Virus genome (UHGV): UHGV-0248400
Strand: one strand, 5' to 3'
Source: a virus
DNA length: 59,635 nucleotides
The notes under the pieces are model-generated. The model saw only the letters and a list, made by a program, of their open reading frames with translations. It was not told the DNA's origin and did not search any database. Of the stretch, positions 4,528 through 29,299 are shown in pieces (positions within the stretch are counted from its first letter, which is position 1; each line of letters begins with the position of its first letter). A program made the translations under genes and the position numbers.

Positions 4528-4556
4528 TGTACATCAACTGAACAGGGGTTAAGACG

Positions 4557-11534: not shown

Positions 11535-12470
11535 TCAACCCCGCTGCATATCCGTGTAAAACTGCATAATCACATCGTCCGGGAATGCGTTAAAATCACA
11601 CTGCGGGTTCATCATCATGGCGAACGGTCGAACGTATTCGCGGATCTCTGGCGTTACAGTAGCCTGTGTGGTCATCGCGTTAAACAGCGTGCCTGTTCCT
11701 TCATAACGCTCTGTCAGCGTCACCATTACATCAAGCACATCAGAAGGCCATTCCCGACCGATATGATTGTGTAACCAGTTTTCCGTAATGTTGTACCCGG
11801 TGGTGTTCCGGCGCAGAGTGTACAGCGCGTTATTGAAGTTGCCGCACAGCGTTTCAAACCGTTTCCAGACGTCGAAGCCATAGCGGATCACTACATCCTT
11901 TTGACTCATCACCCGTGGTGTTGCGTCCGGTTCTGCCTGTGGTAAACCGTCGCGGATCACGCCGTCCATATAGTTCAGAACATCAGGATACCAGCCGCTG
12001 TCGATCCGGTTCAGTACCCATGACTCAGTGACCCGGCGATTCAGTCCGGCGTTACGCAGTACGTCAACCGCCTTAAATGTCCCGCCACACTGATCCCTGA
12101 ACCGTTCCCAGACATCATAGCCGTAGATCACCTGTTCAACTTCCTTATCCACCATCCGCAACTGCTGAAAATAATTATCGCTAAACCGACGATGAGGCAG
12201 CGCAGCACGCAGGGTATCAACGCTGACGCTTTTGTTCAGTACATGCGGCTGCGCTGGCGGTTGCGTGGCGATGACCACGGGGTTCAGATCCAGTTCCCCG
12301 CCCGTTACCGTACTGAGGATTAGATTTAACGTTTCTGCCCGTGGTAGCCGTTTTCCTGTCATCCATTCAGTAAAACGACCCTTGTTTACGTTGCAACCCA
12401 TCATGTTCAGATAATTTACAGCGTTGTCTGCTGAACCAAAGTGACGAGCAAACTTATCGAATAAATTCAT
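11535..12470 (-). CDS. putative DNA-binding regulator with N-terminal HTH-like region and tandem-duplicated C-terminal domains
   Basis: 311 aa with an AAGGTG SD. Internal repeats (VIYGYDVWERFRDQCG... and VIRYGFDVWKRFETLCG...). Isolated minus-strand gene next to iteron region I. Its RBS lies inside an inverted iteron copy. Confidence 0.5.
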   Translation of the reverse strand: MNLFDKFARHFGSADNAVNYLNMMGCNVNKGRFTEWMTGKRLPRAETLNLILSTVTGGELDLNPVVIATQPPAQPHVLNKSVSVDTLRAALPHRRFSDNYFQQLRMVDKEVEQVIYGYDVWERFRDQCGGTFKAVDVLRNAGLNRRVTESWVLNRIDSGWYPDVLNYMDGVIRDGLPQAEPDATPRVMSQKDVVIRYGFDVWKRFETLCGNFNNALYTLRRNTTGYNITENWLHNHIGREWPSDVLDVMVTLTERYEGTGTLFNAMTTQATVTPEIREYVRPFAMMMNPQCDFNAFPDDVIMQFYTDMQRG

Positions 12471-12474
12471 TGTT

Positions 12475-12935
12475 GTTACACCTTACCAGATGTGATTAGG
12501 TCAAGTTTACGCCTTATATGAAACAAGTACAACTCTTATATGCAACAGGATCAAAGTTGGCCTTGTTACAACTGGTAGGATGAAAGAGAAACCTTGTTAC
12601 ATCTGGTAAGCTGAAACATAGATTGCTAAAGTTCTATGTAAACCATCCAAGCACATCTGGTAAGCTGAAACTAAAAATCCTTATATATTAGTTATTTATC
12701 TTTTTATAGTATAGATAGTATAGATAGTATAGATATATAAGAAATTATAAAGTAGGTATAGTTAGGCTAGTTAAATTGGTAAGCTGAAACAAGGTAAACT
12801 AGGAGGGATTAAAAAGTTATAGGAAAATACCATACTATCTATGATTTTCAATGTTATCAACAACTTAAAGTATGTTGTAGACAATCCGTGATAAATTGTG
12901 CAAAATTAACCAAAATGGTAAGAGGAAACTAGCTT
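12475..12935. repeat. AT-rich iteron region I (ATCTGGTAAGCTGAAAC x3-4, TTGTTACA half-sites, (AGTATAGAT)x3)
   Basis: No ORF across ~460 bp. Direct and inverted repeats are seen directly. Homologous to 30515-30790. Confidence 0.6.
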
Positions 12936-13571
12936 ATGAAAATTTCAGATCGTGCGAAACGTGCCAGTCTGGAATTAAGTCCTGAACAGCTCAACTTCGC
13001 CAACCTGTGGCTAGATCGCGCAAATAACGGCCTGAGCAACGCCCAGTGCGTTTTAAGGTCTTATCCGGGTCATAACACTGAGGCGGCTGCAGCGACGACC
13101 GCACACCGTCTGCTGTCGAATACGAAGGTATTGAACTATCTCGATGCAATGGGAAGCCATGCGCTGGAATCTGTCGGTGAATCGTTATCGTCTCGTGTCG
13201 AATGGTGGAAGCGTGCGGCAAGTACCGCTGAAGAATTACTGGAGCCGTTTTGCAAACGTGTAGTGATCCCTGGTACGGACGATGACGAATGCAAACATCT
13301 GTGGGTGAACAGCACTGACGATATCCCGAACCACCTGCAGCAATACGTGGTGCGTTACAAACGTTATCTGTTGGGCGGGTACACGCTGGAAACGCGTGAA
13401 CTGTTCGATCCCAAGACGCGGGCGAAAGCATCGGAGAACCTGGATAAAATCACCGGGAACAGCGTTGAGCGTGTGGAACTGTCAGGGGCGGTTGGTAATC
13501 TGGTCCAGACGGTGCCAGACGGTGCCAGCATTGAAGATATTGCACAGTTGTATCAGAAGGCGTTGAAATAA
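12936..13571 (+). CDS. terminase small subunit (Terminase_2/P27-like)
   Basis: LSPEQLNFANLW...NG.SNAQ...Y...AA.ATAHRLLSNTKVLNYL matches the N-terminal HTH pattern of P27-type TerS. AAGAGG SD. Confidence 0.55.
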   Translation: MKISDRAKRASLELSPEQLNFANLWLDRANNGLSNAQCVLRSYPGHNTEAAAATTAHRLLSNTKVLNYLDAMGSHALESVGESLSSRVEWWKRAASTAEELLEPFCKRVVIPGTDDDECKHLWVNSTDDIPNHLQQYVVRYKRYLLGGYTLETRELFDPKTRAKASENLDKITGNSVERVELSGAVGNLVQTVPDGASIEDIAQLYQKALK

Positions 13572-13634
13572 CGCCTGCAACCGTTTGCGTTTTGACTATC
13601 TAAGGGCGGGTAGTGCTATGGTACATGGTGGCGT

Positions 13635-13660
13635 AAAAAAGCCCCTTACGGGGCGTTTTA
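13635..13660. terminator. bidirectional rho-independent terminator (AAAAAAGCCCCTTACGGGGCGTTTTA)
   Basis: GC stem flanked by an A-run and a T-run, placed between convergent genes. Confidence 0.6.
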
Positions 13661-13827
13661 TTCAGCAGCCCATTTACGAGCATTTTGACGATTGATCAAA
13701 GCACATTCGATCATTGTGCGTCTGGAACAATTTAAACCTTTAGCTTTCGCTTGTTTTGCACGGTTACGGTAATGCTTAACTTCTTCACGACATTCTTTAG
13801 CAAATATTTCTGTTAAAATGCTCATTT
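13658..13827 (-). CDS. small basic protein (55 aa)
   Basis: GAGGA SD. Lies downstream of the minus-oriented promoter at 13858-13900. Below the track size cutoff. Confidence 0.4.
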
Positions 13828-13857
13828 CTTGTTCCTCACAATTCGTTGTCTATGTGA

Positions 13858-13900
13858 GTAATTTACACTTCCTTGTGTAATCCGTCAAGAATTATTTTAA
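13858..13900 (-). promoter_or_regulatory. conserved promoter copy (-35 TTGACG, 17 bp, -10 TAAATT)
   Basis: Reverse complement of GTGTAATCCGTCAAGAATTATTTTAAA. Confidence 0.5.
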
Positions 13901-14044
13901 ATATTCGTCATCACCAGTAACCCAGAAACGATCGCCAACATCAGGTGACGATTCCCAGGGCATCTTTTCAGTTACTTCCAGTTCCACATCGCCCCGCGTG
14001 TTTTCAGCGATAATCTTCACGGGTACGCCGTCATAGGTTTTCAT
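13892..14044 (-). CDS. small protein (~50 aa)
   Basis: ATGA overlap with the rdgC stop. Its 3' end overlaps the promoter UP element. Confidence 0.3.
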
Positions 14045-14958
14045 CGTTGAGCCTCCCCGCCCAGAGCGGTTACAAGCTGTTTGATCAGCGCTGAAAGTTC
14101 ACCTGTCATCAGTGTAAAATCAGCGTCGAACCGCGCTAACACATCTTCACGATCGATATCGTCGTTCTGGTCGATCAGTTCGTCGCAGAATTTCAGGCGC
14201 GTTAAAATCGCGTCATCAGTCAGCGTGAACATAACCCGCTGTTGCCAGTCCAGCGCCAGTTTAGTAATGAATTTCCCGGCTTCGATGTGCGTTTTAATTT
14301 CATCGCTTACCAGATCCTGTTTCTTAACGCGGGCAATACCACCATCAGCCAGGATCGCTTTCAGTTCTGCCGCGTCACCGATCGCGAAATAATCACCGGG
14401 GACTTTACCGAGCTTGACCCATTCAGTCATCGTCAGTTCAACAGGGTTTTCAATGGTCAGCGGGATAACCGGGAGGCTACCCAGACTTTTACGCAGCAGC
14501 GCCAGTGCATCTTCAGCTTTGCGAGCGCTGGACGTATCGACAACAATCAGACCGCTCATAACATCGATCCACAACTGCGTGCGACTGTCTTTGGTGAATG
14601 CTCGTGGTAACAGAGACTGCAACACTTCATCTTTCAGGCTGTCTTTCTCTGTTTTCTTCAGCTTGCGACCCTGTTCATTTTCCAGTTTCGCAATGCGCGC
14701 GTTCAGTTCCTGTTTGATAACCGGACCGGGCAGGATTTTTTCCTGACGTTGCACGGTTAACAGATACTGACCGTTTGCCTGATGTGCCAGGGTCTGGCTG
14801 AAAGCAGTCGCCGGAACCCATCCGGTGCGTGCCGTATCCTGGGAACCGCACGGCGTAAACTGGAACGGCAGCAACTGTTGTTCAATGGTTGCCAGTTGTG
14901 CCATCAGCGACATAGGATTGCTGATACGGTAGATAATTGCGTTTTTGAAGAAGTTCAT
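14041..14958 (-). CDS. rdgC: recombination-associated protein RdgC homolog
   Basis: 305 aa. It aligns along its whole length with E. coli RdgC (FKN..YR...[12 protein letters not shown]...KILP..VIKQ...[23 protein letters not shown]...LLPRAF...LGGEAQR). Confidence 0.8.
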
Positions 14959-14960
14959 AA

Positions 14961-15299
14961 TTAGTCGATATCCTGTGGGTTAATTTTAATGGTTGTTTCG
15001 ATTTTCGGTGTACTACCAGCCGTTGATAATGTTTGATATTCGATTACGTCAACTTCAATAAACATACCGTTAGTAACAGCATCGTTTATTGCTACGTTCA
15101 GTTCATCTGTCAGACGCTTAATTTCACGCTGGCGTGCCAGTGCTTCTGATAATTTCACTTCAATACCCTCTTTAATAACCGGTACAATTCCGCAGCGGCA
15201 GTTGATCATCCGTTCACGACCGTTATCATCAACTGCTGCAGGGATGTAAGTTACGCCCGGTTCAAGTTCAACCGTGGGCGACCAGTCGAAACGGTTCAT
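14961..15299 (-). CDS. hypothetical protein (112 aa)
   Basis: Compact operon spacing. Confidence 0.5.
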
Positions 15300-15502
15300 T
15301 CACAACGCTCCCATGAATGTTGACCAGTACGCGCCGCAAGCCAGCCTGACCACTTATTTTTAATATCAATATCGTCATAATCCATTAGTCCGTTTTCATC
15401 ACGGACACCGTCTAATGATTTCCATCCCAGACAGGTATCACGCGTGATCCACTCTTCGAAATTACGCTGTTCACGAATTCTAATTTCTAACGAACGGGTC
15501 AT
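15296..15502 (-). CDS. hypothetical protein (68 aa)
   Basis: Overlapping start-stop. Confidence 0.45.
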   Translation of the reverse strand: MTRSLEIRIREQRNFEEWITRDTCLGWKSLDGVRDENGLMDYDDIDIKNKWSGWLAARTGQHSWERCE

Positions 15503-15723
15503 TTCCGGTTCCTTCTTTTCCGTGCATCGCGCCGGGACTGTGCAACACCAGTTTTACGGCGCGGCTGTTTGGTCGGTAACTGTTGGGTAACCTGTGGTAG
15601 TTGTAATCCAGTGGTTACCGTTTCGAAATCACCGATCGTGAGTTTACCCAGACTTTTAATCTGTTCGCGGAACTGTTTCAACGTTTCACAGAAAGGGTAC
15701 AAACCTACAATGATATTTTTCAT
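15499..15723 (-). CDS. hypothetical protein with basic C-terminus (74 aa)
   Basis: Overlapping start-stop. Confidence 0.45.
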   Translation of the reverse strand: MKNIIVGLYPFCETLKQFREQIKSLGKLTIGDFETVTTGLQLPQVTQQLPTKQPRRKTGVAQSRRDARKRRNRK

Positions 15724-15992
15724 ACGTTCAGCACCGCGAAATCAGGCGACAGGCTGCGGTGATCGTGCTGCCCGGACCAGGTGAAAGAAAAGGTGTAATC
15801 GCACTGTTCGCCGTTGAACAGGAAGGGGATTTGAAACCCCGTATCGTCGGTGATGCGAACTTTTACGGGGTATTCAGCTTGTGGGTCGATGGCGACAATC
15901 TGGCCGAAAGGTTTTGTTTTCCGACGTGCAAGAACGTCGATGAGTTGTGGATTGGTGATTTCCACCTGTTGACCAACATGATAGATAGACAT
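15720..15992 (-). CDS. hypothetical protein (~90 aa)
   Basis: ATG ~15990 with GGAG SD. The longer track ORF starts at TTG inside the promoter -35 box and is rejected. Confidence 0.45.
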   Translation of the reverse strand: MSIYHVGQQVEITNPQLIDVLARRKTKPFGQIVAIDPQAEYPVKVRITDDTGFQIPFLFNGEQCDYTFSFTWSGQHDHRSLSPDFAVLNV

Positions 15993-16024
15993 TCTGTTGA
16001 CTCCGGGTTGTTTGTACACAACCA

Positions 16025-16068
16025 AAAGTCTATTTGATAATTCGTAATCCGTCAAGAATTATTTTAAA
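16025..16068 (-). promoter_or_regulatory. conserved promoter copy (-35 TTGACG, 17 bp, -10 TAGACT)
   Basis: Reverse complement of CGTAATCCGTCAAGAATTATTTTAAACC. Confidence 0.5.
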
Positions 16069-16236
16069 CCGTGCATCACTATCTATCGCGTAACAGATAC
16101 CGTTGCTGTAAACGGTTGTAGTCTGGGTAATCCGTTGATAATCGTGACACTGACCGCGAACACGCAGATCATATGCTGACTGTACGACGAACCATGCAAC
16201 CATTATTGCTAACAATTTCAAAACAAATCTAAGCAT
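16030..16236 (-). CDS. small protein with N-terminal hydrophobic segment (68 aa)
   Basis: ATG. Its 3' end reads through the promoter motif, so the C-terminal extent is uncertain. Confidence 0.35.
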   Translation of the reverse strand: MLRFVLKLLAIMVAWFVVQSAYDLRVRGQCHDYQRITQTTTVYSNGICYAIDSDARFKIILDGLRIIK

Positions 16237-16295
16237 TTCCGCACCCTCCTGTGTTTACCCCAGAGTAGTGCGGATTTCCGGGGAGGCTATGGGGG

Positions 16296-16796
16296 TTAGT
16301 CTGATTTAACGGTAACGCCTGCTGCGTTGAGGACTTTGGCGCAATCCTGAACACCTTGACGGTAACAGTCAGCACGACTCGCGTCTTTCGGTATTACGAT
16401 GAATGAAGTATCTGGCAACTCAACGACTAGTCGATCGTTCTCATAGAAATCAGCAACGCGGTTTAACGCGGCGATCAATGCGTCAACTTCATGTTTGTTT
16501 TCCGGTCCGTTTAACAGTACGCCTTCAACTGAGGGTAGATCGGCAATCGTGGGCCATTTCATTTCGATGAATCGACGCAAATCACTTAAACAATGTGCGA
16601 TATCTTTCATGTTTTGCATTGCTAACGAGTCATAAGTGTTGCGACTGGCTTTCCACATACACCATGCACGAGATAAACGATCGCCATCAGTTTCACGGTA
16701 ATCATCCCCGTGAGTTTGACGTAGATTTTCCAGTACAATTTTCGGTGTCCCATAAACTTTAGAATAACTTTCTTCAAACTGGTCACGACTGTTCAT
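16296..16796 (-). CDS. hypothetical protein (166 aa)
   Basis: Long ORF with an ATG start. Confidence 0.5.
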   Translation of the reverse strand: MNSRDQFEESYSKVYGTPKIVLENLRQTHGDDYRETDGDRLSRAWCMWKASRNTYDSLAMQNMKDIAHCLSDLRRFIEMKWPTIADLPSVEGVLLNGPENKHEVDALIAALNRVADFYENDRLVVELPDTSFIVIPKDASRADCYRQGVQDCAKVLNAAGVTVKSD

Positions 16797-16947
16797 AACT
16801 TGTGCACCTTAAAATTACAGCCTGAATAGCGATGTTTACCGCATAATTTACAGCGGTGTTCCTCAGTGGCGTAATTACGTTCATCCCCATGAATGGTTCT
16901 GAACAGATACCACTGATGTTTGCAAAAAAGACGTCTAATGAAGTTTA

Positions 16948-17175
16948 TTAAAGTTCTGCCTCTACGCTGGTTATCAGTTCACCTTCAGTGACCAAATCAG
17001 AAATGATAAGTGTTAAAAACAAATCTTTTTGATTTTTGAAAAGAAAGCGGTTGACCTCATTAACTATTTCTTTAACTTTCACCTGGTCACAAGGGTTACA
17101 AAATACTGTCATGTTTTTAATACCTTTCTGAACACAACGAATGATTTGTTCAGCTAACAACAAATTACCGTTCAT
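16948..17175 (-). CDS. hypothetical protein (75 aa)
   Basis: ATG start. Confidence 0.45.
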   Translation of the reverse strand: MNGNLLLAEQIIRCVQKGIKNMTVFCNPCDQVKVKEIVNEVNRFLFKNQKDLFLTLIISDLVTEGELITSVEAEL

Positions 17176-17380
17176 ATTTAATCACCCCGTGACCAGGTGC
17201 GAAGCAAACCGTATTACGTTCTTTGAAAACCCATCCGGCTTGCTTTGCCTGTTTCAGACAATCGCGAAAGTTTTCACCAGCGAACCCAGTAACTTTAGTT
17301 GTGGAAAACGAACCTTTGGGTTGATTGCACATTCTACAATCACAGTAAAGGTCCATTGAATACCCGCTAACTACTGGCAT
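17165..17380 (-). CDS. Cys-rich small protein (~71 aa)
   Basis: ATG 17380 with AGAGG SD. CDC..C and C..C motifs. Confidence 0.4.
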   Translation of the reverse strand: MPVVSGYSMDLYCDCRMCNQPKGSFSTTKVTGFAGENFRDCLKQAKQAGWVFKERNTVCFAPGHGVIKYER

Positions 17381-17392
17381 CAGCAACCTCTC

Positions 17393-17572
17393 TTACAGGC
17401 TTTGTATCATTCGAAGTATTACCGGTCTTACCGCAGCGCGTATTTCAAGTAGTGAATATTCAGGAAACAGGCGTTCCATTTCAGACCATACGTCATTGGC
17501 ATTATTTTTAACGCGACAAATACGAACCATCGCTATTTGCATTTCTGCTTCATCATCCTGTCTTTTAGTCAT
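17393..17572 (-). CDS. small protein (~59 aa)
   Basis: ATG with AGAGAGG SD (AGAGGTTGCTGA junction repeated at 17380). The track ORF extends to a TTG at 17680. Confidence 0.35.
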   Translation of the reverse strand: MTKRQDDEAEMQIAMVRICRVKNNANDVWSEMERLFPEYSLLEIRAAVRPVILRMIQSL

Positions 17573-17574
17573 GG

Positions 17575-17757
17575 TCAGCAACCTCTCTTCTGCTGGTATT
17601 CGATTTTGTTCAATGTGTTTTGCACGATCTGCCATGAGCGTAACATGAACAACGCCGCGTATTGTGACAACATGACGCAACGAGGTTGAACACTGTATGC
17701 CTCGATAGTGTCCATATCATCAGGTGTCAGAAGGAAACGCCAAGGTGTGCTATTCAT
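17575..17757 (-). CDS. small protein (~60 aa)
   Basis: ATG with GGAGCGG SD. The track ORF starts at 17790. Confidence 0.35.
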   Translation of the reverse strand: MNSTPWRFLLTPDDMDTIEAYSVQPRCVMLSQYAALFMLRSWQIVQNTLNKIEYQQKRGC

Positions 17758-17944
17758 GTTCAAGCCGCTCCAGCAGTTCGCGGATCTCATGCAGAATGTG
17801 CTGCTTTGTCTGCGTCGTTACACAAACACCATCGGTACGCCCAAACGTGTTCAGGACCGTTTGAAGCGCGTGTTTCAGTTCGATATATTCCGTGACAGGT
17901 ATAGAAACCATCACCACTAATTTTCCGTCAGTGTTAGCCATCAT
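17750..17944 (-). CDS. small protein (~64 aa)
   Basis: ATG 17944 with GTGGGG SD. Confidence 0.4.
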   Translation of the reverse strand: MMANTDGKLVVMVSIPVTEYIELKHALQTVLNTFGRTDGVCVTTQTKQHILHEIRELLERLEHE

Positions 17945-18135
17945 AAACCCCACACGTTAGTTACTAAATCATACAAAACGATAGTTGGGAGAAACACACC
18001 AACCAGAACGATCACGTATATGTGCCATACTCTTTTCGAATGTAACACCAGTGGAATGACAACATAGGTGATAAACAAATAAATAAGTGCGCAAACAATC
18101 ACGGTTACTACTATTTTTCCGGGTAATCCGCTCAT
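17941..18135 (-). CDS. small membrane protein (2 TM, 64 aa)
   Basis: AGGAG SD. Hydrophobic helices. Confidence 0.5.
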   Translation of the reverse strand: MSGLPGKIVVTVIVCALIYLFITYVVIPLVLHSKRVWHIYVIVLVGVFLPTIVLYDLVTNVWGL

Positions 18136-18201
18136 GTTGATTACTCCTGTTCAGTTAATGCTCAAAGCATAGTAGCATTTCTGCAATTGTTAAAACGGCC
18201 A

Positions 18202-18390
18202 TCATAACTCCCATATTAATTTGATGATAAGCCAGAACGCTAATATCATTAGTGAAACGAGAAACGGTCCGTACATAACTTCAAATGAGCGCTTCAGTCG
18301 CCAGACAGCCGGTGTGTAGAAACAGATCACGCCTTGAAATAAACAAACGACAAAAAGAGTTGTTAATATTTTATCTAATAATTCAATCAT
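18202..18390 (-). CDS. small membrane protein (~62 aa, 2 TM)
   Basis: ATG (MIELLDK...). The track extends to a TTG at 18474. Confidence 0.4.
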   Translation of the reverse strand: MIELLDKILTTLFVVCLFQGVICFYTPAVWRLKRSFEVMYGPFLVSLMILAFWLIIKLIWEL

Positions 18391-18542
18391 GTTGGTTACC
18401 CCGTTGTTAGATGGTGCATAGTGTGTGATTTCGTGGAGTGAGTTACGCTTTATACTCACCGTAGCGCCTGACAATAAGCGGTATCTTCAGCCGGACATTA
18501 CCGGGTTACTACATACTTGGTCAGGTATTTTGTCTACGTGTA

Positions 18543-18586
18543 AGACTATAACCGTGCATCTGCAATTCGTCAAGAATTATTTTAAC
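18543..18586 (-). promoter_or_regulatory. conserved promoter copy (-35 TTGACG, 17 bp, -10 TATAGT)
   Basis: Reverse complement of TGCAATTCGTCAAGAATTATTTTAACC. Heads the 13.66-18.47 kb minus-strand cassette. Confidence 0.55.
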
Positions 18587-18647
18587 CGATACCAGCTACG
18601 ATATCCCGTGGTAAACTGTACAGAACTGTTGAAAACGGAACATCACA

Positions 18648-20411
18648 ATGAATAAATTCGCTGGCAACATTCACAAGTACCCGCGCTGGCGGGACGCTTA
18701 CGCAGAAGATGAACGGATCTGGCGCAAAGGTGAACCACGGCCTGATTATCGTCAGTGTTACATCGACCGTATCAACCTGATAAACCGTATGCGCACCGAT
18801 CGGGCAATCATCCCGGTACTGAAAAAGTATTACGAAACTAACCCAGTGGCGTTCATCCTCGACTGGGCGTTTACCTACGATCCGCGTAACGTTGGTACGG
18901 AATTTCCGCCGAACATGCCGTTCTGTCTGTTTGAGCGTCAGATCGATATGATTCAGTTCGTTTATGAAGCGCTCGAAGATAAAGAAAAAGGATTGTGGGA
19001 AAAATCCCGCGATTATGGCGCAACGTGGGTTGCCTGCGGGTTATCCGTGTGGGCGTGGCTCTATCGTCCCGGTTCGTCGGTTGGCTGGGGGTCACGTAAA
19101 GAAACGCTCGTTGATAAACTGGGGGATCCTGACAGTATTTTTGAAAAAATCCGCCAGATTATCCGCGCTCTGCCTCCTGAATTACGCCCGGTTGGTTACC
19201 GTGAAAAAGATCACCTGACGTTCATGAAATGTATCAACCCGGAAAACGGTGCAACAATTACTGGTGAGGCCGGGGATAACATCGGGCGCGGTGGTCGTAA
19301 GTCAATTTATTTTCTCGATGAGGCTGCACACGTTGATCGCCCTGAACTGATCGAAGCGTCATTGTCAGCTAACACCAACGTTCGTATCGATATCAGTTCT
19401 GTTAACGGTGTCGGTAACGTTTTTTATCGTAACCGTAAAGCAGGCATTGAATGGGAGCCGGGTAAGAAAATACCCCGTGGTAAATTGCGCGTCATGGTTC
19501 TGGACTGGCGCGATCACCCGGCGAAAGATGATGAATGGTATAAACGAGAAAAACAGTCATTCGCTGAAAAAGGTTTACAGCATATTTTCGCACAGGAAGT
19601 TGACCGCGATTATGCTGCAGCCGTTCAGGGTGTACTCATTAAAGCTGAATGGGCGCGGGCCGCATTCGATGCGTTCAAAGATATCGCGTGGCGTAAAGCA
19701 AACGGTCTGCTTGCACCAGCAGGTAAACGCATTGCCGGGCAGGATGCCGCAGACGGTGGTGAAGATGCGAGCGCGCTGGTCGTTGCTCATGGTGTATTTA
19801 TCACGCATCTACAACTTGACCACCGCAGCGCAGAACTGGCCGCACCTGGTATGCTGAATGCTGCGAACATGATCGGTGTTGATGAATACTGGTATGAAGT
19901 GAACGGCGTTGGTGCTGGCGTTAAAGTAGCGGCTAACGATCGTAAGGATACGTTGCGGTTCCGTGTTCGTCCGTGGTTACCGAACGGAAAAGTAGTCAAT
20001 CCTGGCGGTGATATTATTGGCGGAACGATACCGGGCGATAAAGACCGTAAAACAAACAAAGATTATTTCAGCAACTATAAAGCACAGGCATCATGGGCGC
20101 TGCGTATGCGTTGTCAGAGAATTTATAAATGGTATGTCGAAGGTCAACCACAGGATCCTGATGAGATTATTCTGATTGATCCCGGACTAGAAAACGCGCA
20201 GCGTCTGGAGGCCGAATTGTGCCAACCAACGTATAGCACTAATGGTGCGGGGAAAATCGTTATTGATAAAAAACCAAATGGTTCTAAATCACCTAACTTT
20301 TTCGACGCAACCGTTATTGCTACATCACCGAAGCGCGTAGAATTCGAGGAAGAAGCGTTTACAGGTACAGTAAACGCTGTTGGAACACCAGATTACGGGA
20401 GTATATTCTAA
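18648..20411 (+). CDS. terminase large subunit
   Basis: 587 aa. The ATPase region precedes an RNaseH-like nuclease region. Confidence 0.85.
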   Translation: MNKFAGNIHKYPRWRDAYAEDERIWRKGEPRPDYRQCYIDRINLINRMRTDRAIIPVLKKYYETNPVAFILDWAFTYDPRNVGTEFPPNMPFCLFERQIDMIQFVYEALEDKEKGLWEKSRDYGATWVACGLSVWAWLYRPGSSVGWGSRKETLVDKLGDPDSIFEKIRQIIRALPPELRPVGYREKDHLTFMKCINPENGATITGEAGDNIGRGGRKSIYFLDEAAHVDRPELIEASLSANTNVRIDISSVNGVGNVFYRNRKAGIEWEPGKKIPRGKLRVMVLDWRDHPAKDDEWYKREKQSFAEKGLQHIFAQEVDRDYAAAVQGVLIKAEWARAAFDAFKDIAWRKANGLLAPAGKRIAGQDAADGGEDASALVVAHGVFITHLQLDHRSAELAAPGMLNAANMIGVDEYWYEVNGVGAGVKVAANDRKDTLRFRVRPWLPNGKVVNPGGDIIGGTIPGDKDRKTNKDYFSNYKAQASWALRMRCQRIYKWYVEGQPQDPDEIILIDPGLENAQRLEAELCQPTYSTNGAGKIVIDKKPNGSKSPNFFDATVIATSPKRVEFEEEAFTGTVNAVGTPDYGSIF

Positions 20412-21115
20412 TGACCACGCTAACACTCTTGAGTAGTGAAACCAGTGACGATTTATTGACCAAAATCAACGATGCATTGAGTGATGGTAAATTTCTTTAC
20501 GGTACAACAACAGTTTTACCGGGTGAGAGTCATAACCCGGTGCGTTTTTTCCAGTATGTCAGCGATATTGATATTACCAGCGGGGCAAGCGCTTATGATA
20601 TCTGGCTACAGCAGGGTAACACAGGAAGTGAACAGGATTTTCTGGATAGTCTACAGGGTGCATCCTACGTGCGCCAGAAATCAGAGGTGACCTGGTCGGG
20701 TATCTCACTGGTTATTCCAACCGGATCGCCGATCAACCTGATTAACGCACTGAAAGCGCTCACCCCCAGCGGTGGTACGTTAGCGCCATTCTTCAACACC
20801 ACTGACAACAAACTGCACGTATTCAACCAGAACATGACGGTTAATTTTAAACTTAACCTGATTGGTTCGTGGGCAGGATCAACCGAAAACCGCAGCATGA
20901 CCTTAAATTTTGTTGGCACAACGGGTAACACACTGACTTATTCACGAGATAGTAGCGTGACCAGTGATAATGTATCGTTCAGAACGTTCCTGAGTATCGA
21001 CCAGGATGGGAATATTGCAACGAACGGTACAGAGTTGACGATCGTCAGTAACGGTGCCGCGTTTACCGCCACACAGGTGTTATTGATTGCTGAACAGCTT
21101 GTGCCGACTCCTTAA
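20411..21115 (+). CDS. fibre-like protein carrying the conserved phage tail-fibre motif SAYDIWLQQGNTGSEQDFLDSL
   Basis: The motif GxSAYxIWLxxGNTGxExDFL is widespread in phage tail and head fibre proteins. ATGA overlap with terL. Confidence 0.45.
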   Translation: MTTLTLLSSETSDDLLTKINDALSDGKFLYGTTTVLPGESHNPVRFFQYVSDIDITSGASAYDIWLQQGNTGSEQDFLDSLQGASYVRQKSEVTWSGISLVIPTGSPINLINALKALTPSGGTLAPFFNTTDNKLHVFNQNMTVNFKLNLIGSWAGSTENRSMTLNFVGTTGNTLTYSRDSSVTSDNVSFRTFLSIDQDGNIATNGTELTIVSNGAAFTATQVLLIAEQLVPTP

Positions 21116-21123
21116 AATGAACA

Positions 21124-21147
21124 GCCCCGTTACTCCGGGGCGTTTTC
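21124..21147 (+). terminator. rho-independent terminator (GCCCCGTTACTCCGGGGCGTTTTC)
   Basis: GC stem followed by a T-run. Confidence 0.55.
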
Positions 21148-21299
21148 GTCGCGGTAAACGTCAGCGCAGCCGTATTTATTTTCAGGATGATACAACAGTT
21201 CAACTTTCAATGCTGCCTGACACTCAGCCCAGGTAAGAACGTTATCTGTCACTGGTTCAATTGAAGAACCGTTTAAAACCAGTACCAATACATAACCGA

Positions 21300-21626
21300 T
21301 CAGCATTTTTTGAGAGTCTCCCGCCAGTCCAGACCATGAAGGTTTACGGATCCAAGAAAATGATGACTGGAACTTTGTAACCAGACATCATTTTTCATTT
21401 CTGGTTCCCGCAGATAAGAAAACACACTACCGTTTCGATCTGTCGCAATAAAACTGTGACTTTTTGGAACCATTAAAACAGTACCAAAATAATTAACCGC
21501 TTTATGTTCTGCGATTGATTCAAATGTCATTTTACAGTCCGGCGCTTCCTCGTGGATATCCCACGACTTACCGCAATGCGAACACTGGTATTCATCATTG
21601 CAGCGAATAGCGTTTACATGGTTCAT
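21300..21626 (-). CDS. Cys-rich protein (108 aa)
   Basis: C..C...C..C at the N-terminus. Confidence 0.45.
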   Translation of the reverse strand: MNHVNAIRCNDEYQCSHCGKSWDIHEEAPDCKMTFESIAEHKAVNYFGTVLMVPKSHSFIATDRNGSVFSYLREPEMKNDVWLQSSSHHFLGSVNLHGLDWRETLKKC

Positions 21627-21937
21627 TATTCAACCTCTCTGATTTGTTCACCTATGATCCGTTTCAAACGAGTGAGGCGGCGACACTGATTTATAAAGGC
21701 ACCATTTGACCATGGCTGACTAAAACGACCAGTTGACACGGGATTCATAAGACCGGGAATTGTCACTGAAGCATCTGCCGTGACCCGCTCACTTTCGCGA
21801 TCATAACTAATTTCAATGTTAAGACCGTTATCAGGATTGAACATATGGCAACCTGTCTCAGTACCTGTTCCCATATAGTGAGCCATGCACGTCATACCCT
21901 GAACTGTCAGAAATTGTTTATACTGCTCGTAAGTCAT
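21626..21937 (-). CDS. hypothetical protein (103 aa)
   Basis: ATGA coupling. Confidence 0.45.
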   Translation of the reverse strand: MTYEQYKQFLTVQGMTCMAHYMGTGTETGCHMFNPDNGLNIEISYDRESERVTADASVTIPGLMNPVSTGRFSQPWSNGAFINQCRRLTRLKRIIGEQIREVE

Positions 21938-22140
21938 TTCACAGTCTCCGGGTATCCGAGTAACTTAACCAGACGATAATAACGTTTCCATCTCGCCTGA
22001 CCGATATTTAATTTATGGGCGCGGCAATATGTCCCGCATTTACTGAAATACTGGCGTTTATGATTGCTGATGTTCACGGTGTGCGTATAACCATCGCGAA
22101 CATCAATGAGTAGTAACCGCGCCTGACGATTATTTTTCAT
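21934..22140 (-). CDS. hypothetical protein (~68 aa)
   Basis: ATG 22140 with GGAGA SD. Confidence 0.4.
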   Translation of the reverse strand: MKNNRQARLLLIDVRDGYTHTVNISNHKRQYFSKCGTYCRAHKLNIGQARWKRYYRLVKLLGYPETVK

Positions 22141-22448
22141 TCTACAGTCTCCGGTACAAACCATTGGGAGGCCAGATAAGCGCACCCGGCGATCTTGTGC
22201 TCGTGTTTCGGTTCGAAATTACCCAGAATCACTCTAAGGTGCATGTGAGCATCTTTGAAGTTCACACCTTGTACAGCGACTGCGTAATTTTCCAGACCTT
22301 TGAAAAACCATTTGCTGATCCACTTGTTCCACGGGTTAGAGTCTTGGAAAAACTCTTTCGGGATATCTTTCATGGCCGGGAGAAAAGTAGCAAGGTTTTT
22401 TGGACCAAAAGCGATATCGGCTTTAGTAATATTTTCGATCGGTTTCAT
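22137..22448 (-). CDS. hypothetical protein (103 aa)
   Basis: ATG start, first gene downstream of the promoter. Confidence 0.5.
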   Translation of the reverse strand: MKPIENITKADIAFGPKNLATFLPAMKDIPKEFFQDSNPWNKWISKWFFKGLENYAVAVQGVNFKDAHMHLRVILGNFEPKHEHKIAGCAYLASQWFVPETVE

Positions 22449-22479
22449 TTCGTTTACTACTCCTGTTCAGTTGATATTG

Positions 22480-22523
22480 AAAGCCTAACCGTACATCTGC
22501 AATCCGTCAAGAATTATTTTAAC
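22480..22523 (-). promoter_or_regulatory. conserved promoter copy (-35 TTGACG, 17 bp, -10 TAGGCT)
   Basis: Reverse complement of TGCAATCCGTCAAGAATTATTTTAACCCC. Confidence 0.5.
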
Positions 22524-22572
22524 CCCGTGCAAAACTAACCCGCCTGATATAACATACGTTAAGAATAAACCC

Positions 22573-23940
22573 GTGGAGCCTGTGAAGATGGCAGATGACC
22601 AATTTGAACAACTAGCCGTTGCCGGATACAGTCGCACAGGCAACCAGGTTAATGACGACTTTTTACCTAAACTCAACGGTAAACAGGGTCGTCGTATCCT
22701 TCGCCAGATGGCAGAGAACGACGAAACGATCGGTGGTGTACTGTTCGCCATGAACAGCGTTTATCGTTCCGTACAGTGGATTTTTGACCCGTCTGATAAA
22801 GAAGATCCGCAAGCTGTTAAATACGCTCAATGGCTGCAGAATGCTATTGAAAACCAGATGGGTGATCCACAGGGTGCGTTACCTGATGATACCTGGTCAG
22901 CATTCGTTCAGACCTGGACCGATACCGATGTTTTCGGCTGGGGATGGTATGACGTCTGGGTTAAAGATTTACCCGATGGTTCCGTGGGTATCGCCCGTCT
23001 CGTTCCGGTTGCGGCTGAAACGCTCGACGGCTGGGAGATTGAAGAACCGACAGGCTATGTCACGGGTATTCATCAGCGTCAGCCGTCAACCAATATCAGC
23101 AAACTGATCCCCCGGTCACGATCGCTGCATCTGATTTCATCACCGAACAAAGGTAACCCGGAAGGCTTATCACTGCTGCGCACAGCATATCGCCCGTGGT
23201 ATTACAAAAAAGTTCATCTGGAAATCGAAGCAATTCTGGCAGAACGTGGAACAGGTTTCCCGGTCATTACCGTTAACCCTGACATTAAAAAAGCGGCTAA
23301 CGATCCGACGCTGTCTGAACAGCAACGTCAGTTAGCACAGGCAATGATAGATGAATTTGAAAACATCGCGGCTAATATTAAGCGTAATGAACAGTCTGGT
23401 CTGGTGATTTACTCAAAACCGTATATCACCGGGTTTGATAACGAAACAGGGGTGACGACATACGGCGGTGAACAACAGGTTAAACTGGAATTCCTGACGC
23501 CTGAACAGTCTAACGCCGTGGATATCGACCGCACGATTAAGCGTCTCGATACCAGTATTGCCCGTGCGCTACTGGCTGACTTTATGTTTTTCGGCACAGG
23601 TGGCAACACAGGGAACCAGGCGAACCTGGGAAGCCGGACTGAACTGTGGATCCGTGCGATGCAGTCGCGTATCGATAGCAACGTTGAATGTATTAACCGT
23701 CAGTTAATCCCGCAGTTATGGAAACTGAATGCATTCCCGGATGAATATAAACCAACGCTACGCGCAGGCTCAATCAGTAAAGACAGTATTGAAACACTGA
23801 CCACCGCGCTTACACGTCTGGCACAGGCTGGCGCGCCAGTATTCCCGGATCCTGTACTTCAGGAATTCGTGTATAAAGAGGCGGGATTACCAACAGCGGG
23901 AATTGATAAAACTGGTGACGGTTTACCATCTATTGATTAA
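22573..23940 (+). CDS. portal protein
   Basis: 455 aa. Size and position between terL and head morphogenesis. Confidence 0.75.
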   Translation: MEPVKMADDQFEQLAVAGYSRTGNQVNDDFLPKLNGKQGRRILRQMAENDETIGGVLFAMNSVYRSVQWIFDPSDKEDPQAVKYAQWLQNAIENQMGDPQGALPDDTWSAFVQTWTDTDVFGWGWYDVWVKDLPDGSVGIARLVPVAAETLDGWEIEEPTGYVTGIHQRQPSTNISKLIPRSRSLHLISSPNKGNPEGLSLLRTAYRPWYYKKVHLEIEAILAERGTGFPVITVNPDIKKAANDPTLSEQQRQLAQAMIDEFENIAANIKRNEQSGLVIYSKPYITGFDNETGVTTYGGEQQVKLEFLTPEQSNAVDIDRTIKRLDTSIARALLADFMFFGTGGNTGNQANLGSRTELWIRAMQSRIDSNVECINRQLIPQLWKLNAFPDEYKPTLRAGSISKDSIETLTTALTRLAQAGAPVFPDPVLQEFVYKEAGLPTAGIDKTGDGLPSID

Positions 23941-23942: not shown

Positions 23943-23972
23943 AAAAAAGGGGTCTATAACAGACCCCAAAAC
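23943..23972. terminator. hairpin terminator (GGGGTCTATAACAGACCCC), U-run on minus strand
   Basis: Stem with an A-run on the 5' side and a T-run on the minus-strand 3' side. Between the portal gene and the convergent minus cassette. Confidence 0.5.
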
Positions 23973-24039: not shown

Positions 24040-24375
24040 TCACCCCACATAATTTGCAACTATTTGATCGCAGTCGTCCGTGTTGCGGGCCAGTCGATAA
24101 ATTTCAGAAGCAACCTGTGACCGATAATACATATCGACGTTGTAATTATTGGTCACGTAGTTATAAGCCGCTTCGTAACTGCCGAACATTTTGTGATTGC
24201 TCACAACTTCTTTTTTCACTGAACCATTCAGCAACCAGCCGATCAACAACAGTATTGCACCGATGCCAGGACTGGTTAAAACCGCAATGAAGAACCAGGT
24301 TCCGGGGTTACGCCCGGTACGTTTGGCAAAGGCACCAACCAGAGCGCTAAACAGGATCCACAGGATTACGAACAT
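24040..24375 (-). CDS. small inner-membrane protein (2 TM, ~111 aa)
   Basis: AAGGAG SD before ATG 24375. Hydrophobic N-terminal half. Confidence 0.5.
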   Translation of the reverse strand: MFVILWILFSALVGAFAKRTGRNPGTWFFIAVLTSPGIGAILLLIGWLLNGSVKKEVVSNHKMFGSYEAAYNYVTNNYNVDMYYRSQVASEIYRLARNTDDCDQIVANYVG

Positions 24376-24404
24376 TTTCAAATCTCCTTAATCAGTTGTT
24401 GAGT

Positions 24405-24448
24405 TAACAGTACACGTCCATGTGTAATCCGTCAAGAATTATTTTGAA
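24405..24448 (-). promoter_or_regulatory. conserved promoter copy (-35 TTGACG, 17 bp, -10 TACTGT)
   Basis: Reverse complement of GTGTAATCCGTCAAGAATTATTTTG. Confidence 0.45.
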
Positions 24449-24699
24449 ACGTCGAATACTGGCGGAACACCCATTGCAGCCATAACCCGCCGCTGTTCGT
24501 ACTCCTGACGCAGTTTTTGCAACTTCTCTATACCGATATCACAACCCCGGATTATATCGTCACACAGGTCAGTATAACTTGCATCAGCTTGTGGCGTGGT
24601 TCGCGGATAGTCAACCAGTGACGGATCCGTAATGATAACTTTCGGGAGAAACGCCACCACATCCCCGACGCCGTTTTTCATGATGGTCATGAGTCGCAC
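24439..24699 (-). CDS. hypothetical protein (86 aa)
   Basis: ORF of 86 aa with an uncertain start. Confidence 0.4.
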   Translation of the reverse strand: MRLMTIMKNGVGDVVAFLPKVIITDPSLVDYPRTTPQADASYTDLCDDIIRGCDIGIEKLQKLRQEYEQRRVMAAMGVPPVFDVSK

Positions 24700-25283
24700 C
24701 CGTGATAAAGTTCCTGACCCGGTTCAACTTTAGACCCGCAACACTGGCAAACCAAACGGTATTCGAAACCAGGTGCTGCACAGTGCTTACGGTAACCAGC
24801 GTCGTAAAGTTCCCGGCATGCATAGATAACAGTGGTCATGTTATAATTAGTGACCGATCCGAGCATTTCTTTAACAACAGTTTCACGTTCATCAGGCAGT
24901 GGTTTGAAATCGTCGTCGTTAACCAGAAACGATTCAGAACCGTCTTCAGGCTTAACCCACACTTCGTTACCGTTGACGCCCAGTACGTTAACAGTGGTCC
25001 ATTCGTTGCCGTTATTCCACTGGCAGACTGTACCGACAGTTGGTAGCCCTTGACCGTCCCACACTTCGAACACCTCGATCAGTTCGCGCTGTGCGATGAT
25101 AGGCATCCCACCCATACCATCATAACCTGTTTCTCTCTGATTACCCTTGTTTTGCCAACGACCAAGACCTATTACCTGCTCGTAAAATACAAGACACCAG
25201 GATCCTTGACATACACTAAGCGCCCAGTCTGGCGCACCTTCAAAATCTGCTTCAGAACCTGTGATATATTTCCACTGTTTCAT
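24687..25283 (-). CDS. hypothetical protein (198 aa, C-terminal Cys cluster)
   Basis: ATG start. Confidence 0.5.
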   Translation of the reverse strand: MKQWKYITGSEADFEGAPDWALSVCQGSWCLVFYEQVIGLGRWQNKGNQRETGYDGMGGMPIIAQRELIEVFEVWDGQGLPTVGTVCQWNNGNEWTTVNVLGVNGNEVWVKPEDGSESFLVNDDDFKPLPDERETVVKEMLGSVTNYNMTTVIYACRELYDAGYRKHCAAPGFEYRLVCQCCGSKVEPGQELYHGCDS

Positions 25284-25286
25284 AAG

Positions 25287-25655
25287 TTATTTCCTCACCG
25301 GGCACCAGTGGTTGAACACTGATGGATCAAGACCACCAACTATTGCCGCACATTTTGTAATCACACCGCGCGTATATTTTTCACGGTCTGTTACTGGTTT
25401 ACTACCCACGTAAATGCTGGCTTTATATCGGTTGTTAACATCTGCGAAAATTTGATTACCGTTATCGCAGATACGCATCTGACACTCAACCATCAAACTG
25501 AAAGCATCAGCGTTATTGATAAGCGGGTTCCACAAACGACCACCACCGATATCGATCCCTTCGTTTACGTCGCGCTCGCCATACGCGATATAGTATTTAC
25601 CCTCAATTTCACCAGCGCGGGCCGCATTGATTAGCAATTCACGATTAGTCATCAT
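25287..25655 (-). CDS. hypothetical protein (122 aa)
   Basis: ATG start. Confidence 0.5.
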   Translation of the reverse strand: MMTNRELLINAARAGEIEGKYYIAYGERDVNEGIDIGGGRLWNPLINNADAFSLMVECQMRICDNGNQIFADVNNRYKASIYVGSKPVTDREKYTRGVITKCAAIVGGLDPSVFNHWCPVRK

Positions 25656-26155
25656 TTACGCCCCGTCGATCCGAAACCACCTTTACGCTGACTTTCCACG
25701 CCGGGCAACTGTTCCACTTCAACCACAGTTACCGGTTCAACGCGCTCTACCATCAGTTGACAGCAACGTTCACCGTGTTCCAGCATGAACACCTTGTGGG
25801 AATGGTTAACCAGAGTAATGAAATATTCGCCGGGATAATCGCGGTCACCAACACCCACGCAGTTGATCAGCGTCATACCATTTTTCAGGCTGAGGCCGGA
25901 ACGAGGGTAGAATTTGATGCAGTGATCAGCATCGACAGACATTTTCAGACCAGTGGGGATCAGTGCGCGTTCGCCTGGGTAAATACCAATAATACCCTCA
26001 ATGGGTTTTCGTTCCAGTTTAGCGCCTGCAGGCGGAAAGATTGTCACGGTTTCAGACCACAGGCACGCGCGAACATCCATCCCGGCGCTATCAGCCGTTT
26101 CCCGCGTTGGGATCACAGCCAGGTTAGTGAGTCGTTGAATGTAAAGATTAGACAT
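25652..26155 (-). CDS. dut: dUTP diphosphatase
   Basis: dUTPase motifs AGMDVRA, IPTGL, PRSGL and a C-terminal GGFGSTG motif 5. Confidence 0.8.
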   Translation of the reverse strand: MSNLYIQRLTNLAVIPTRETADSAGMDVRACLWSETVTIFPPAGAKLERKPIEGIIGIYPGERALIPTGLKMSVDADHCIKFYPRSGLSLKNGMTLINCVGVGDRDYPGEYFITLVNHSHKVFMLEHGERCCQLMVERVEPVTVVEVEQLPGVESQRKGGFGSTGRK

Positions 26156-26186
26156 TGGTTAGTTCCTCGTTGTGTTTCGACACTTG

Positions 26187-26230
26187 CAATAGTGGATTCT
26201 GTAGTGTAATCTGTCAAGAATTATTTATAA
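26187..26230 (-). promoter_or_regulatory. conserved promoter copy (-35 TTGACA, -10 CACTAT/ACTATT)
   Basis: Reverse complement of GTGTAATCTGTCAAGAATTATTTATAA. Confidence 0.45.
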
Positions 26231-26246
26231 CCAACGAGGAACAAAC

Positions 26247-26976
26247 GATGAGTAAAGTTGACTGGAGCAAAGCGCCTGACTGGGCTGAATGTGTTGTCAT
26301 ACGTACAGGTTATCAACTTAGTGTTCATTATCACTGGTCTGAATTACCCCGTTCGCAGGCTCGCATGATGAAGATTGAAACAGACACTAATTTTTTAATG
26401 TCTGATCCTGCTTTTTGGCGAATTGTTGAACATCGTCCTGTCGATGTAACTTCTAAAACAACGATGAGTAAAATTGACTGGAGCAAAGCGCCTGACTGGG
26501 CAACCTGTGCGGTTGTACAATCACTTAGCACTGATTATTTCTGGTCTGAAAAACCAAGAAGTGGTGCACGCATGATGGATGTTCAAACAGGGCTTATTCT
26601 TGAAATGAAGCGCCCTGAATTCTGGGAAATAGCTGCTGTTCGTCCGATGGAACCACAACACAGCAGCCCCTGTGCATTTACCCCAGCAGATCAACCATCA
26701 ACTGCACCAGAACTGTTGAACCGGGCCGCTGAACTTCTGGCTGAACGTGGTAAACAGTATGATAAGTCAGGTGAAGAACGTTCAGCGGCTGCAATTGTAG
26801 CTGCGTTTAACATAATCACCAAACGCGATTTAACACCGGGTGAAGGCTGGCTGTTCATGGTCCTGTTGAAAGCGGTTCGTTTCTATTCAAACACTGAAAC
26901 ACCACACCGTGACAGCCTGGAAGATATGATCGCATTTGCTGCATTGCACGCTGAGGAATATCTGAATGATAAGTGA
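26247..26976 (+). CDS. protein with tandem-duplicated N-terminal domain (MSKxDWSKAPDWA...RMM..) and helical C-terminal domain
   Basis: ATG 26247 with GAGGA SD. Two ~70-aa repeats, with ~45 nt of near-identical DNA at 26247 and 26461. Confidence 0.5.
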
Positions 26977-29288: not shown

Positions 29289-29299
29289 GGGCGTTTACC

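Follow-up and report, generated by a model that had tools for sequence, protein, structure and literature searches.

Ancestral seams with repeated early-type promoters and exchangeable genes probably explain the interleaved late region of a 9NA-like Klebsiella phage

UHGV-0248400, a stretch of 59,635 nucleotides (hereafter the window), is a virulent 9NA-like siphovirus of Klebsiella, and at 59.6 kb the window is essentially the whole genome. The map of open reading frames (ORFs) and profile searches show that its plus-strand virion genes are interrupted by five minus-strand blocks. An earlier note, made from the sequence alone, took these blocks for promoter-plus-terminator cassettes that had colonised the seams of a late operon by insertion or inversion. 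We find that the interleaved layout is real, but largely ordinary for the 9NA-like group, which has already been sequenced and partly described. Taken as a whole, it is probably explained by seams of ancestral position that carry standard promoters and hyperplastic gene content, with the late genes divided into separate units.

We assign the window to the 9NA-like group because a megablast search with positions 13000-20500 matched 25 phage records, Klebsiella phage VLCpiS10a best (76% of the query covered, 93.9% identity). The next-best records were Klebsiella phages Kpn BU9 and KP13-27; Salmonella phages 9NA, Sasha, Sergei, Solent and SP069 and E. coli phages AVIO78A, PJ16, PDP46 and KarinMuster also matched. 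By homology, in nucleotides and in proteins, and by gene order, the packaging, head and tail genes place the window in the same group (Nonanavirus/Sashavirus and unclassified Klebsiella relatives), and it shares the group's trait of small genes among canonically ordered virion genes, here as the five minus-strand blocks. For comparison, we used seven close relatives (VLCpiS10a, KP13-27, phi_KPN_H2, Sergei, Sasha, AVIO78A and 9NA), each represented by its ∼30–36-kb structural half. Portal amino-acid identity to these phages is 87–99.6%. Two distant relatives, Proteus phage PM-CJR (63% identical) and Vibrio phage 1.194.O (42%), were found by tblastn with the portal, a search that matched about 60 Vibrio phages.

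The blocks, and the two block proteins that could be named, are as follows.

13658-18582 (ORFs 13658-18474), minus strand: block 1, ∼16 ORFs including rdgC, between terS and terL
14041-14958, minus strand: RdgC in block 1 (phrog_724, E=1.5e-124)
21130-22519 (ORFs 21130-22448), minus strand: block 2, five small ORFs, promoter at 22496-22519, in the seam between the terL unit and the portal
24040-26224 (ORFs 24040-26155), minus strand: block 3, five ORFs, promoters at 26205-26224 and, internally, 24421-24444, in the portal/head-morphogenesis seam
25652-26155, minus strand: Dut in block 3 (phrog_135)
28765-30506 (ORFs 28765-30426), minus strand: block 4, ∼6 small ORFs, promoter at 30483-30506, without a terminal hairpin, in the head-morphogenesis/protease seam
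38566-39258 (ORF 38566-39189), minus strand: block 5, one gene of 207 aa (phrog_30881), promoter at 39235-39258, in the seam between the major tail protein (MTP) and the tail assembly chaperone G

GC skew is negative in each block, as expected for coding on the opposite strand. The 5,076 bp between terS and terL are filled much as the earlier note had described, with a minus-strand block of ∼16 ORFs that includes RdgC and three small proteins with transmembrane-like hydrophobic segments. This block is made up of three sub-units, headed by promoters at 18559-18582, 16041-16064 and 13874-13897. The other four blocks also lie where the note had placed them, except that the last gene of block 2 (21130-21306) had been overlooked, so that the span is 21130-22448. 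Searches of PHROGs and Pfam named RdgC and Dut only, the rest of the block proteins matching families of 'unknown function' or nothing; PDB sequence searches with four larger block proteins gave nothing significant, and no anti-defence function emerged from PHROGs, Pfam or PDB. Most of the block ORFs are small and have no assigned function, which makes the blocks plausible places for accessory genes. In the leader of the first block 1 transcript (18500-18521), a hairpin-forming sequence, ACCGGGTTACTACATACTTGGT, is common to five of the eight genomes despite different downstream genes, and may be a leader or attenuator element.

Comparison with relatives shows how old the seams are likely to be. 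Within the annotated regions, strands alternate at the same seams in all seven close relatives. Every block-gene homologue detected in these phages at the protein level shares both seam and orientation with its counterpart in the window; none has moved between seams. Seven block genes (21130, 21300, 24040, 24439, 25287, dut and 30151) are present in 7/7 relatives, and four or five are present in 0/7. In Proteus phage PM-CJR, minus-strand blocks occupy all five seams and two more, one between the major capsid protein (MCP) and neck genes and one between G and the tape-measure gene (TMP), and dut is again found in the portal/head-morphogenesis seam. In Vibrio phage 1.194.O, minus-strand blocks follow the portal, precede the head genes, interrupt the neck genes, and separate the MTP from the chaperone. 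Each of these two phages has a standard promoter of its own at the head of each minus-strand block: TTTAAARTATnGCTTGACnnATTACA in Proteus (6 copies, all on the minus strand, 0.02 expected), and TTGACAnnnGTAACnnnnnTGTG in Vibrio (3 copies versus 0.01 expected). Shared interleaving across the seven relatives and the Proteus and Vibrio phages argues that the seam positions are ancestral to a wide clade of enterobacterial, Proteus and Vibrio phages. The alignment of relatives, which the earlier note had itself put forward as the check, shows the same interleaved order, which by the note's own criterion refutes recent colonisation of the seams; an origin by inversion is not supported either.

An inversion history would have the blocks once co-oriented within the late operon and then flipped, for example by recombination between inverted promoter copies. 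Some observations lean this way. The standard promoter occurs on the plus strand in the late region of relatives, apparently driving plus-strand small genes (9NA 5834+, Sergei 8101+, Sasha 5173+, AVIO78A 18978+), the small genes between terL and portal in the Vibrio phage are all plus-oriented, and the window gene at 27461-27778 (+) has a Vibrio homologue on the minus strand. Yet no inverted homologue of a block gene was found in the seven close relatives, and the orientation at each seam is stable from Klebsiella to Proteus phages. We therefore regard inversion as most improbable.

On a model after that of the earlier note, self-contained units of promoter, gene and terminator (morons) entered the seams of a formerly uninterrupted late operon, recently and independently of one another. 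Block 5, which comes and goes among relatives, speaks for it. In phi_KPN_H2, the hairpin at this seam is followed directly by the region upstream of G, a clean absence, and KP13-27 and AVIO78A carry different, unrelated small genes there. Lineage-specific extra genes, Sasha gp06 and 9NA gp46, also favor insertion, as do the two further occupied seams of the Proteus phage (MCP/neck and G/TMP), the match of window ORF 21300-21626 to the Proteus terS/terL seam, and that of a replication-arm gene (52823-53161) to the Proteus G/TMP seam. As a general account, the model is nonetheless unlikely. The terS/terL, portal/head-morphogenesis, head-morphogenesis/protease and MTP/G seams are occupied in all or nearly all relatives, and the last three are occupied even in the Vibrio phage, whose portal is 42% identical. 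The seven shared block genes, dut among them, have been kept in place in 7/7 relatives, and no cross-seam homologues were found among the close relatives. At the 'empty' block 5 seam of 9NA (24380-24440), there is a relic promoter with a mutated -35 (TTGGCG) and a sequence like a ribosome-binding site (RBS), but the next ∼230 bp carry no annotated ORF. The seam has the look of a decaying block, pointing to loss rather than lack of insertion. Block 5 alone appears to behave as a moron. Genes do move between seams and arms, but slowly: at great depth a few homologues are found in other seams or arms, and three moved or inverted cases were seen, only in the comparisons with the Proteus and Vibrio phages.

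The two lineage-specific genes are large, minus-strand, and located at seams otherwise empty. Sasha gp06 (516 aa, 3584-5134) directly follows terL, and 9NA gp46 (298 aa, 21691-22587) lies between the tail terminator and MTP. No exact copy of the standard promoter was found upstream of either.

The promoter of the 9NA-like phages was recognized by aligning the seams, a generic sigma-70 scan being uninformative (37 found versus 33 expected). Its 12-mer core, ATAATTCTTGAC, has 11 exact copies in the window versus 0.29 expected, and a 24-mer version has 9 copies at ≤3 mismatches versus 0 expected. All 11 copies show TTGACR, a 17-bp spacer and a TAnnnT-like -10, the sequence hallmarks of sigma-70 promoters. 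Upstream of every copy is an A/T-rich tract (TTAAAATAATTC), and an RBS and start codon follow 50–70 nt downstream. A stretch of ∼25 nt, AAAATAATTCTTGACnnATTRCA, is common to 65 copies in eight genomes, and in 7/7 relatives the promoters are conserved as short stretches inside otherwise variable sequence.

One copy heads each block (18569 for block 1, 22506 for block 2, 26213 for block 3, 30493 for block 4 and 39245 for block 5), which bears out the earlier observation that every cassette begins with a conserved promoter. Three internal copies had gone unremarked: 16051 and 13884 in block 1, and 24431 in block 3. Each of these copies, through the TAA within its AAAATAA motif, also supplies the stop codon for the gene upstream. 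Altogether, 8/11 exact copies fall within the five variable blocks. Elsewhere, copy 58491(-) heads a leftward replication operon (exonuclease, Gp2.5-like SSB, DNA polymerase, methyltransferase), copy 8015(+) heads a rightward ParB-like gene, copy 4490(+) also heads rightward early genes, and a variant at 34365(+) precedes the tRNA-Ser region. Because the same promoter heads replication genes, the block genes are most likely early or middle genes.

Alternatively, the ∼25-nt element could be mainly an operator for a phage regulator, or a site for a modified polymerase, in which case its repetition would reflect co-regulation only and recombination would be incidental. The element is indeed conserved beyond the needs of sigma-70, with the spacer nnATTRCA and the upstream AAAATAATTC nearly invariant in the 65 copies; the Proteus phage has a similar spacer (ATTACA), and the Vibrio phage a conserved spacer of its own (GTAAC). 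On the other hand, the -35, the 17-bp spacing and the -10 fit sigma-70 well, and clean crossovers lie inside the element. We consider this reading improbable, and it overlaps with the explanation by ancestral seams and standard promoters rather than excluding it.

Between the promoters, gene content varies widely. Across the seven relatives, blastn coverage was 5–74% for block 1, 34–99% for block 2, 39–92% for block 3, 22–64% for block 4 and 16–100% for block 5. The blocks are the variable parts of the genome, which to that extent supports the earlier note's interpretation: coverage ranges over 5–100% in the blocks versus 98–100% in the late genes, which are alignable at 73–97% identity. The gene count of block 1 runs from 3 in Sasha (0.65 kb) through 9 in 9NA to 16–18 in Sergei, VLCpiS10a and the window. 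For block 2, ORFs 21130-21306 and 21300-21626 occur in 7/7 relatives and the stretch 21626-22185 is variable. Four of the five block 3 genes are found in all seven, and 30151-30426 is the only block 4 gene that is. Gaps in DNA homology coincide with ORF boundaries.

At two promoters, the junctions themselves can be read. Sasha and Sergei are the same on both sides of block 1, but a 4.5-kb piece of Sergei, gp05-gp17 with rdgC among them, is missing from Sasha. In a three-way alignment, the crossover falls within the promoter, between the direct copies at Sergei 1725 and 6257, with one single-nucleotide difference in the motif marking the switch. The second case is the 13884 copy, where a promoter-leader block of ∼75 bp is common to the window, VLCpiS10a and KP13-27. 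This junction is chimeric: its transcribed side matches VLCpiS10a only, and its upstream side KP13-27 only. These clean junctions show that the repeated promoter can act as a recombination substrate. We also compared, pairwise, the 150-bp flanks of the 65 promoter copies from the eight genomes. Similar flanks were found on both sides in 60 copy pairs, upstream only in 77 and downstream only in 28 (105 one-sided). The unit of exchange usually seems to be a single gene or a promoter-bounded sub-block, not a whole promoter-to-terminator cassette. A unit of promoter, gene and terminator that is present or absent as a whole is seen in block 5.

The downstream ends of the blocks are less uniform than their promoters. 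Four GC-rich candidate terminator hairpins were located (dG values in kcal/mol).

13641-13654, both strands: GCCCC-TTAC-GGGGC, at the convergent terS/block 1 junction; dG -13.7 (plus) and -12.1 (minus), with an A-run before and a T-run after
21124-21141, both strands: GCCCCG-TTACTC-CGGGGC, at the end of block 2; dG -15.4 and -14.7, with weaker A/T runs
23949-23967, minus strand: GGGGTCT-GTTAT-AGACCCC, at the end of block 3, with a U-run on the minus-strand transcript only
38541-38559, both strands: GCCCCGG-TTAGT-CCGGGGC, at the end of block 5; dG -19.7 and -15.9, with A and T runs

The features of a two-way terminator are found at 13641-13654 and 38541-38559, and weakly at 21124-21141. At the end of block 4 (28765), there is no hairpin; the folding z-score is positive, and the block's last ORF runs into the stop codon of the head morphogenesis gene. 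The statement that every cassette ends at a bidirectional hairpin is therefore accurate for three of the five at most (blocks 1, 2 and 5), the hairpin of block 3 being one-way and that of block 4 missing.

Another repeated motif, CCGTGnWWAAYT (CCGTGNWWAAYT), is associated with the late genes. It has 6 exact matches in the window, 6/6 on the plus strand, versus 0.4 expected, and all 28 matches in the relatives' loci are also on the plus strand. Four of the six lie 17–39 nt upstream of the start codons of terS, terL, portal and protease.

12886-12897, plus strand: CCGTGATAAATT, candidate late -10-type motif, 39 nt upstream of the terS ATG
18606-18617, plus strand: CCGTGGTAAACT, then GTACAGAACT, candidate late motif, 31 nt upstream of the terL ATG
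22525-22536, plus strand: CCGTGCAAAACT, then the invariant CTGATATAACATACGTTAAGAA, candidate late motif upstream of portal
30798-30809, plus strand: CCGTGGTTAACT, candidate late motif, 17 nt upstream of the protease ATG, where a conserved non-coding stretch of ∼330 bp ends

Each divergent seam also has an invariant plus-strand block ahead of the late gene. The sequence GTGGTAAACTGTACAGAAC before terL is invariant in 8/8 genomes, CCGTGCAAAA...CTGATATAACATACGTTAAGAA before portal in the eight genomes aligned, ACCCGTGGTTAACTCGCGAGGAA before protease in the five genomes aligned at that seam, and CTTGCGTAATTCGTACAGAACTATTA before G in the three aligned there. The motif CCGTGnWWAAYT reads like an extended -10 box (TGnTAAAnT) without a -35 box, the usual form of promoters that depend on an activator or a modified polymerase. 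We propose that the late genes are divided into several units, each with a promoter of its own, and are not expressed as a single operon by read-through of the blocks. GTACAGAACT was rejected as a general late motif, with two exact copies only (terL and G seams) and a 1-mismatch count of 6 versus 3.15 by chance.

Two AT-rich non-coding regions, 12471-12935 before terS and 30507-30825 before the protease/head operon, contain an iteron-like repeat, CTGGTAAGCTGAAAC, in 6 and 2 copies, respectively; the window has 11 matches at ≤3 mismatches versus 1.5 expected. A tandem repeat of ATAGTATAG (x3.9) is found at 12706-12739. The protease-proximal AT-rich region is conserved in 5/5 genomes aligned, and the equivalent regions of the Proteus and Vibrio phages have repeated 7–8-mers of their own (GTGAAACA; GTGTTAC). 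The iteron-like repeats could be binding sites for a late regulator, a replication origin or a pac-related site. Divergent from terS across the iteron region is a gene for a 311-aa protein (11535-12470, minus strand) with no standard early promoter copy. The protein belongs to phrog_25538, has no Pfam match, and contains an internal duplication (YGYDVWERF... / YGFDVWKRF...). It may be a binder of the repeats.

Together, these observations suggest how the region might work and evolve. The virion genes, in canonical order, would form at least six rightward units instead of one operon, and leftward units of small genes, most of them non-essential, would lie between these at fixed seams. Host sigma-70 polymerase would transcribe the leftward units from a strong promoter (A/T tract, TTGACR, 17-bp spacer starting nnATTRCA, TAnnnT). 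A GC hairpin would usually stop one or both transcripts at the point where a leftward unit and the late unit before it converge. Transcription of each late unit would start anew at a conserved plus-strand element of its own, which stands back-to-back with the early promoter; four of these elements carry CCGTGnWWAAYT. The seams would be hyperplastic regions in which single genes are replaced at gene boundaries, and the repeated promoter-leader blocks of ∼25–75 bp would provide short homologies through which recombination deletes, inserts and swaps promoter-bounded sub-blocks.

A more tentative extension, possible but doubtful, is that promoter and leader form a linker, like the PeSL motifs of T4-like phages, for swapping promoter-bounded packets of early genes between co-infecting 9NA-like siphoviruses at fixed seams. 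The spacer nnATTRCA might then be the operator of a phage switch that shuts the leftward units when the back-to-back CCGTGnWWAAYT promoters, which have no -35 box, fire. If so, a conserved divergent early/late switch module would recur at every seam and would have been kept all the way from Klebsiella to Vibrio phages.

Several points weigh against the explanation by ancestral seams, standard promoters and separate late units. Clean recombination junctions are limited to the Sasha/Sergei and 13884 cases, and some of the one-sided flank pairs consist of a conserved late gene beside a variable first block gene. It may be no more than selection, keeping promoters while their neighbours drift, that makes them mark breakpoints. 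The early/late timing, promoter activity, terminator function and late-motif idea are all predictions from sequence. Insulation by hairpins is not general, given that block 4 has none and that of block 3 is one-way. Neither G nor the 26245 unit has CCGTGnWWAAYT upstream, and one copy is found inside terL (19475) and another inside the 311-aa minus-strand gene (11552). Finally, the search for block-gene homologues in close relatives covered their ∼30–36-kb structural halves and would have missed homologues elsewhere in those genomes.

The late genes that flank the blocks, together with the tRNA, are listed here.

12936-13571, plus strand: terS, small terminase, first late unit (phrog_51, E=6e-9; annotated TerS in Sasha, Sergei and VLCpiS10a)
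18648-20411, plus strand: terL (phrog_2)
20411-21115, plus strand: 234-aa protein with a tail-needle-knob domain (PF16532, E=1.3e-50), overlapping the terL stop codon
22573-23940, plus strand: portal (phrog_113, E=3e-61)
26245-27778, plus strand: small genes ahead of the head morphogenesis gene, variable among relatives (ORF map and alignability)
27815-28768, plus strand: head morphogenesis protein, SPP1-gp7-like (phrog_2468, E=1e-66)
30826-31236, plus strand: XkdF-type protease (profile searches)
32915-33934, plus strand: MCP (profile searches)
35145-35232: tRNA-Ser (GCT), within the head/neck/tail late region
37076-38533, plus strand: MTP (profile searches)
39328-39750, plus strand: G (phrog_8233), which opens the next late unit, with the conserved CTTGCGTAATTCGTACAGAACTATTACTAT just before it

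TerS is 100% alignable in 7/7 relatives, and the coding parts of the head and neck/tail late region (30826-38533) are 91–100% alignable in all of them. The Sf6-type tail-needle-knob domain after terL (20411-21115) is an odd domain in an odd place for a siphovirus. Among the seven relatives compared, the 234-aa gene is present in VLCpiS10a only; 'tail needle knob' also appears in the annotations of Kpn BU9 and Carvaje. The mostly non-coding gap of ∼1 kb between the head and neck genes (34365-35427) is among the regions most variable between relatives. It opens with the early-promoter variant on the plus strand (TTCTTGACGTATTGTT), holds the tRNA-Ser(GCT), and closes with a terminator-like hairpin at ∼35362-35386, followed by TGCTAAAAT, an extended -10-like box before the neck genes. 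An Rfam scan of 34372-35427 found tRNA-Ser alone above threshold, and a second T-arm-like sequence, near 34807-34823, failed to score as tRNA.

Small genes interspersed among the virion genes were already remarked on in the 2014 genome paper on 9NA, a phage for which headful packaging from a pac site is also reported (PMC4153490). In the literature on the 9NA group, leaving aside the chief comparative study of the group (Zeng et al. 2019, J Virol 93:e00848-19), we found no description of the standard promoter, of promoter-mediated recombination or of the late-unit motif; other papers citing the 9NA-like group had nothing on layout or promoters. The present analysis assigns the window to a known phage group and suggests that its odd layout is an old, stable architecture, not a recent invasion. 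It also locates dispensable or exchangeable parts of the genome, of use in engineering Klebsiella therapeutic phages, and offers the block genes as a pool from which to choose candidate host-takeover or anti-defence genes. The regulatory elements obtained comprise 12 early-type promoters, 4 candidate late promoters and 4 terminator hairpins.

Three known systems bear comparison. One is the 9NA-like group itself (9NA, Sasha, Sergei, Solent; VLCpiS10a, KP13-27), in which the virion genes are homologous and syntenic and minus-strand small genes stand at the same five seams. A second is the moron of lambdoid phages, reportedly described by Juhala and colleagues in 2000 and by Hendrix and colleagues. 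Block 5 (38541-39258) is alike, being a gene with its own promoter and terminator between late genes that are adjacent in a close relative. Blocks 1–4 differ, in that they are multi-gene and apparently ancestral, with no sampled relative having an empty seam. The classic rationale for morons, expression from the prophage, does not apply here because the phage is virulent.

The third comparison, conceptually the closest, is with T4-like phages and their hyperplastic regions and PeSL motifs (Arbiol et al. 2010, PMC2839356; Comeau et al. 2014, PMC4122927). There, as here, many strong sigma-70-like early promoters lie in variable small-gene regions among conserved core blocks, and the breakpoints of indels and replacements that set close relatives apart fall at copies of the repeated motif. 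PeSL, however, is a composite of stem-loop and promoter, whereas the internal copies in the window adjoin the upstream gene's stop codon with no stem-loop; the composite form occurs only in some relatives, such as Sergei (1725-1765). PeSL is further marked by mini-circles, which arise when neighbouring copies recombine. The setting is also different, namely a 60-kb siphovirus with blocks antiparallel to the late genes. Unless already described by Zeng et al. (2019), this would extend to a siphovirus family the idea, from T4, that repeated regulatory motifs act as recombination linkers.

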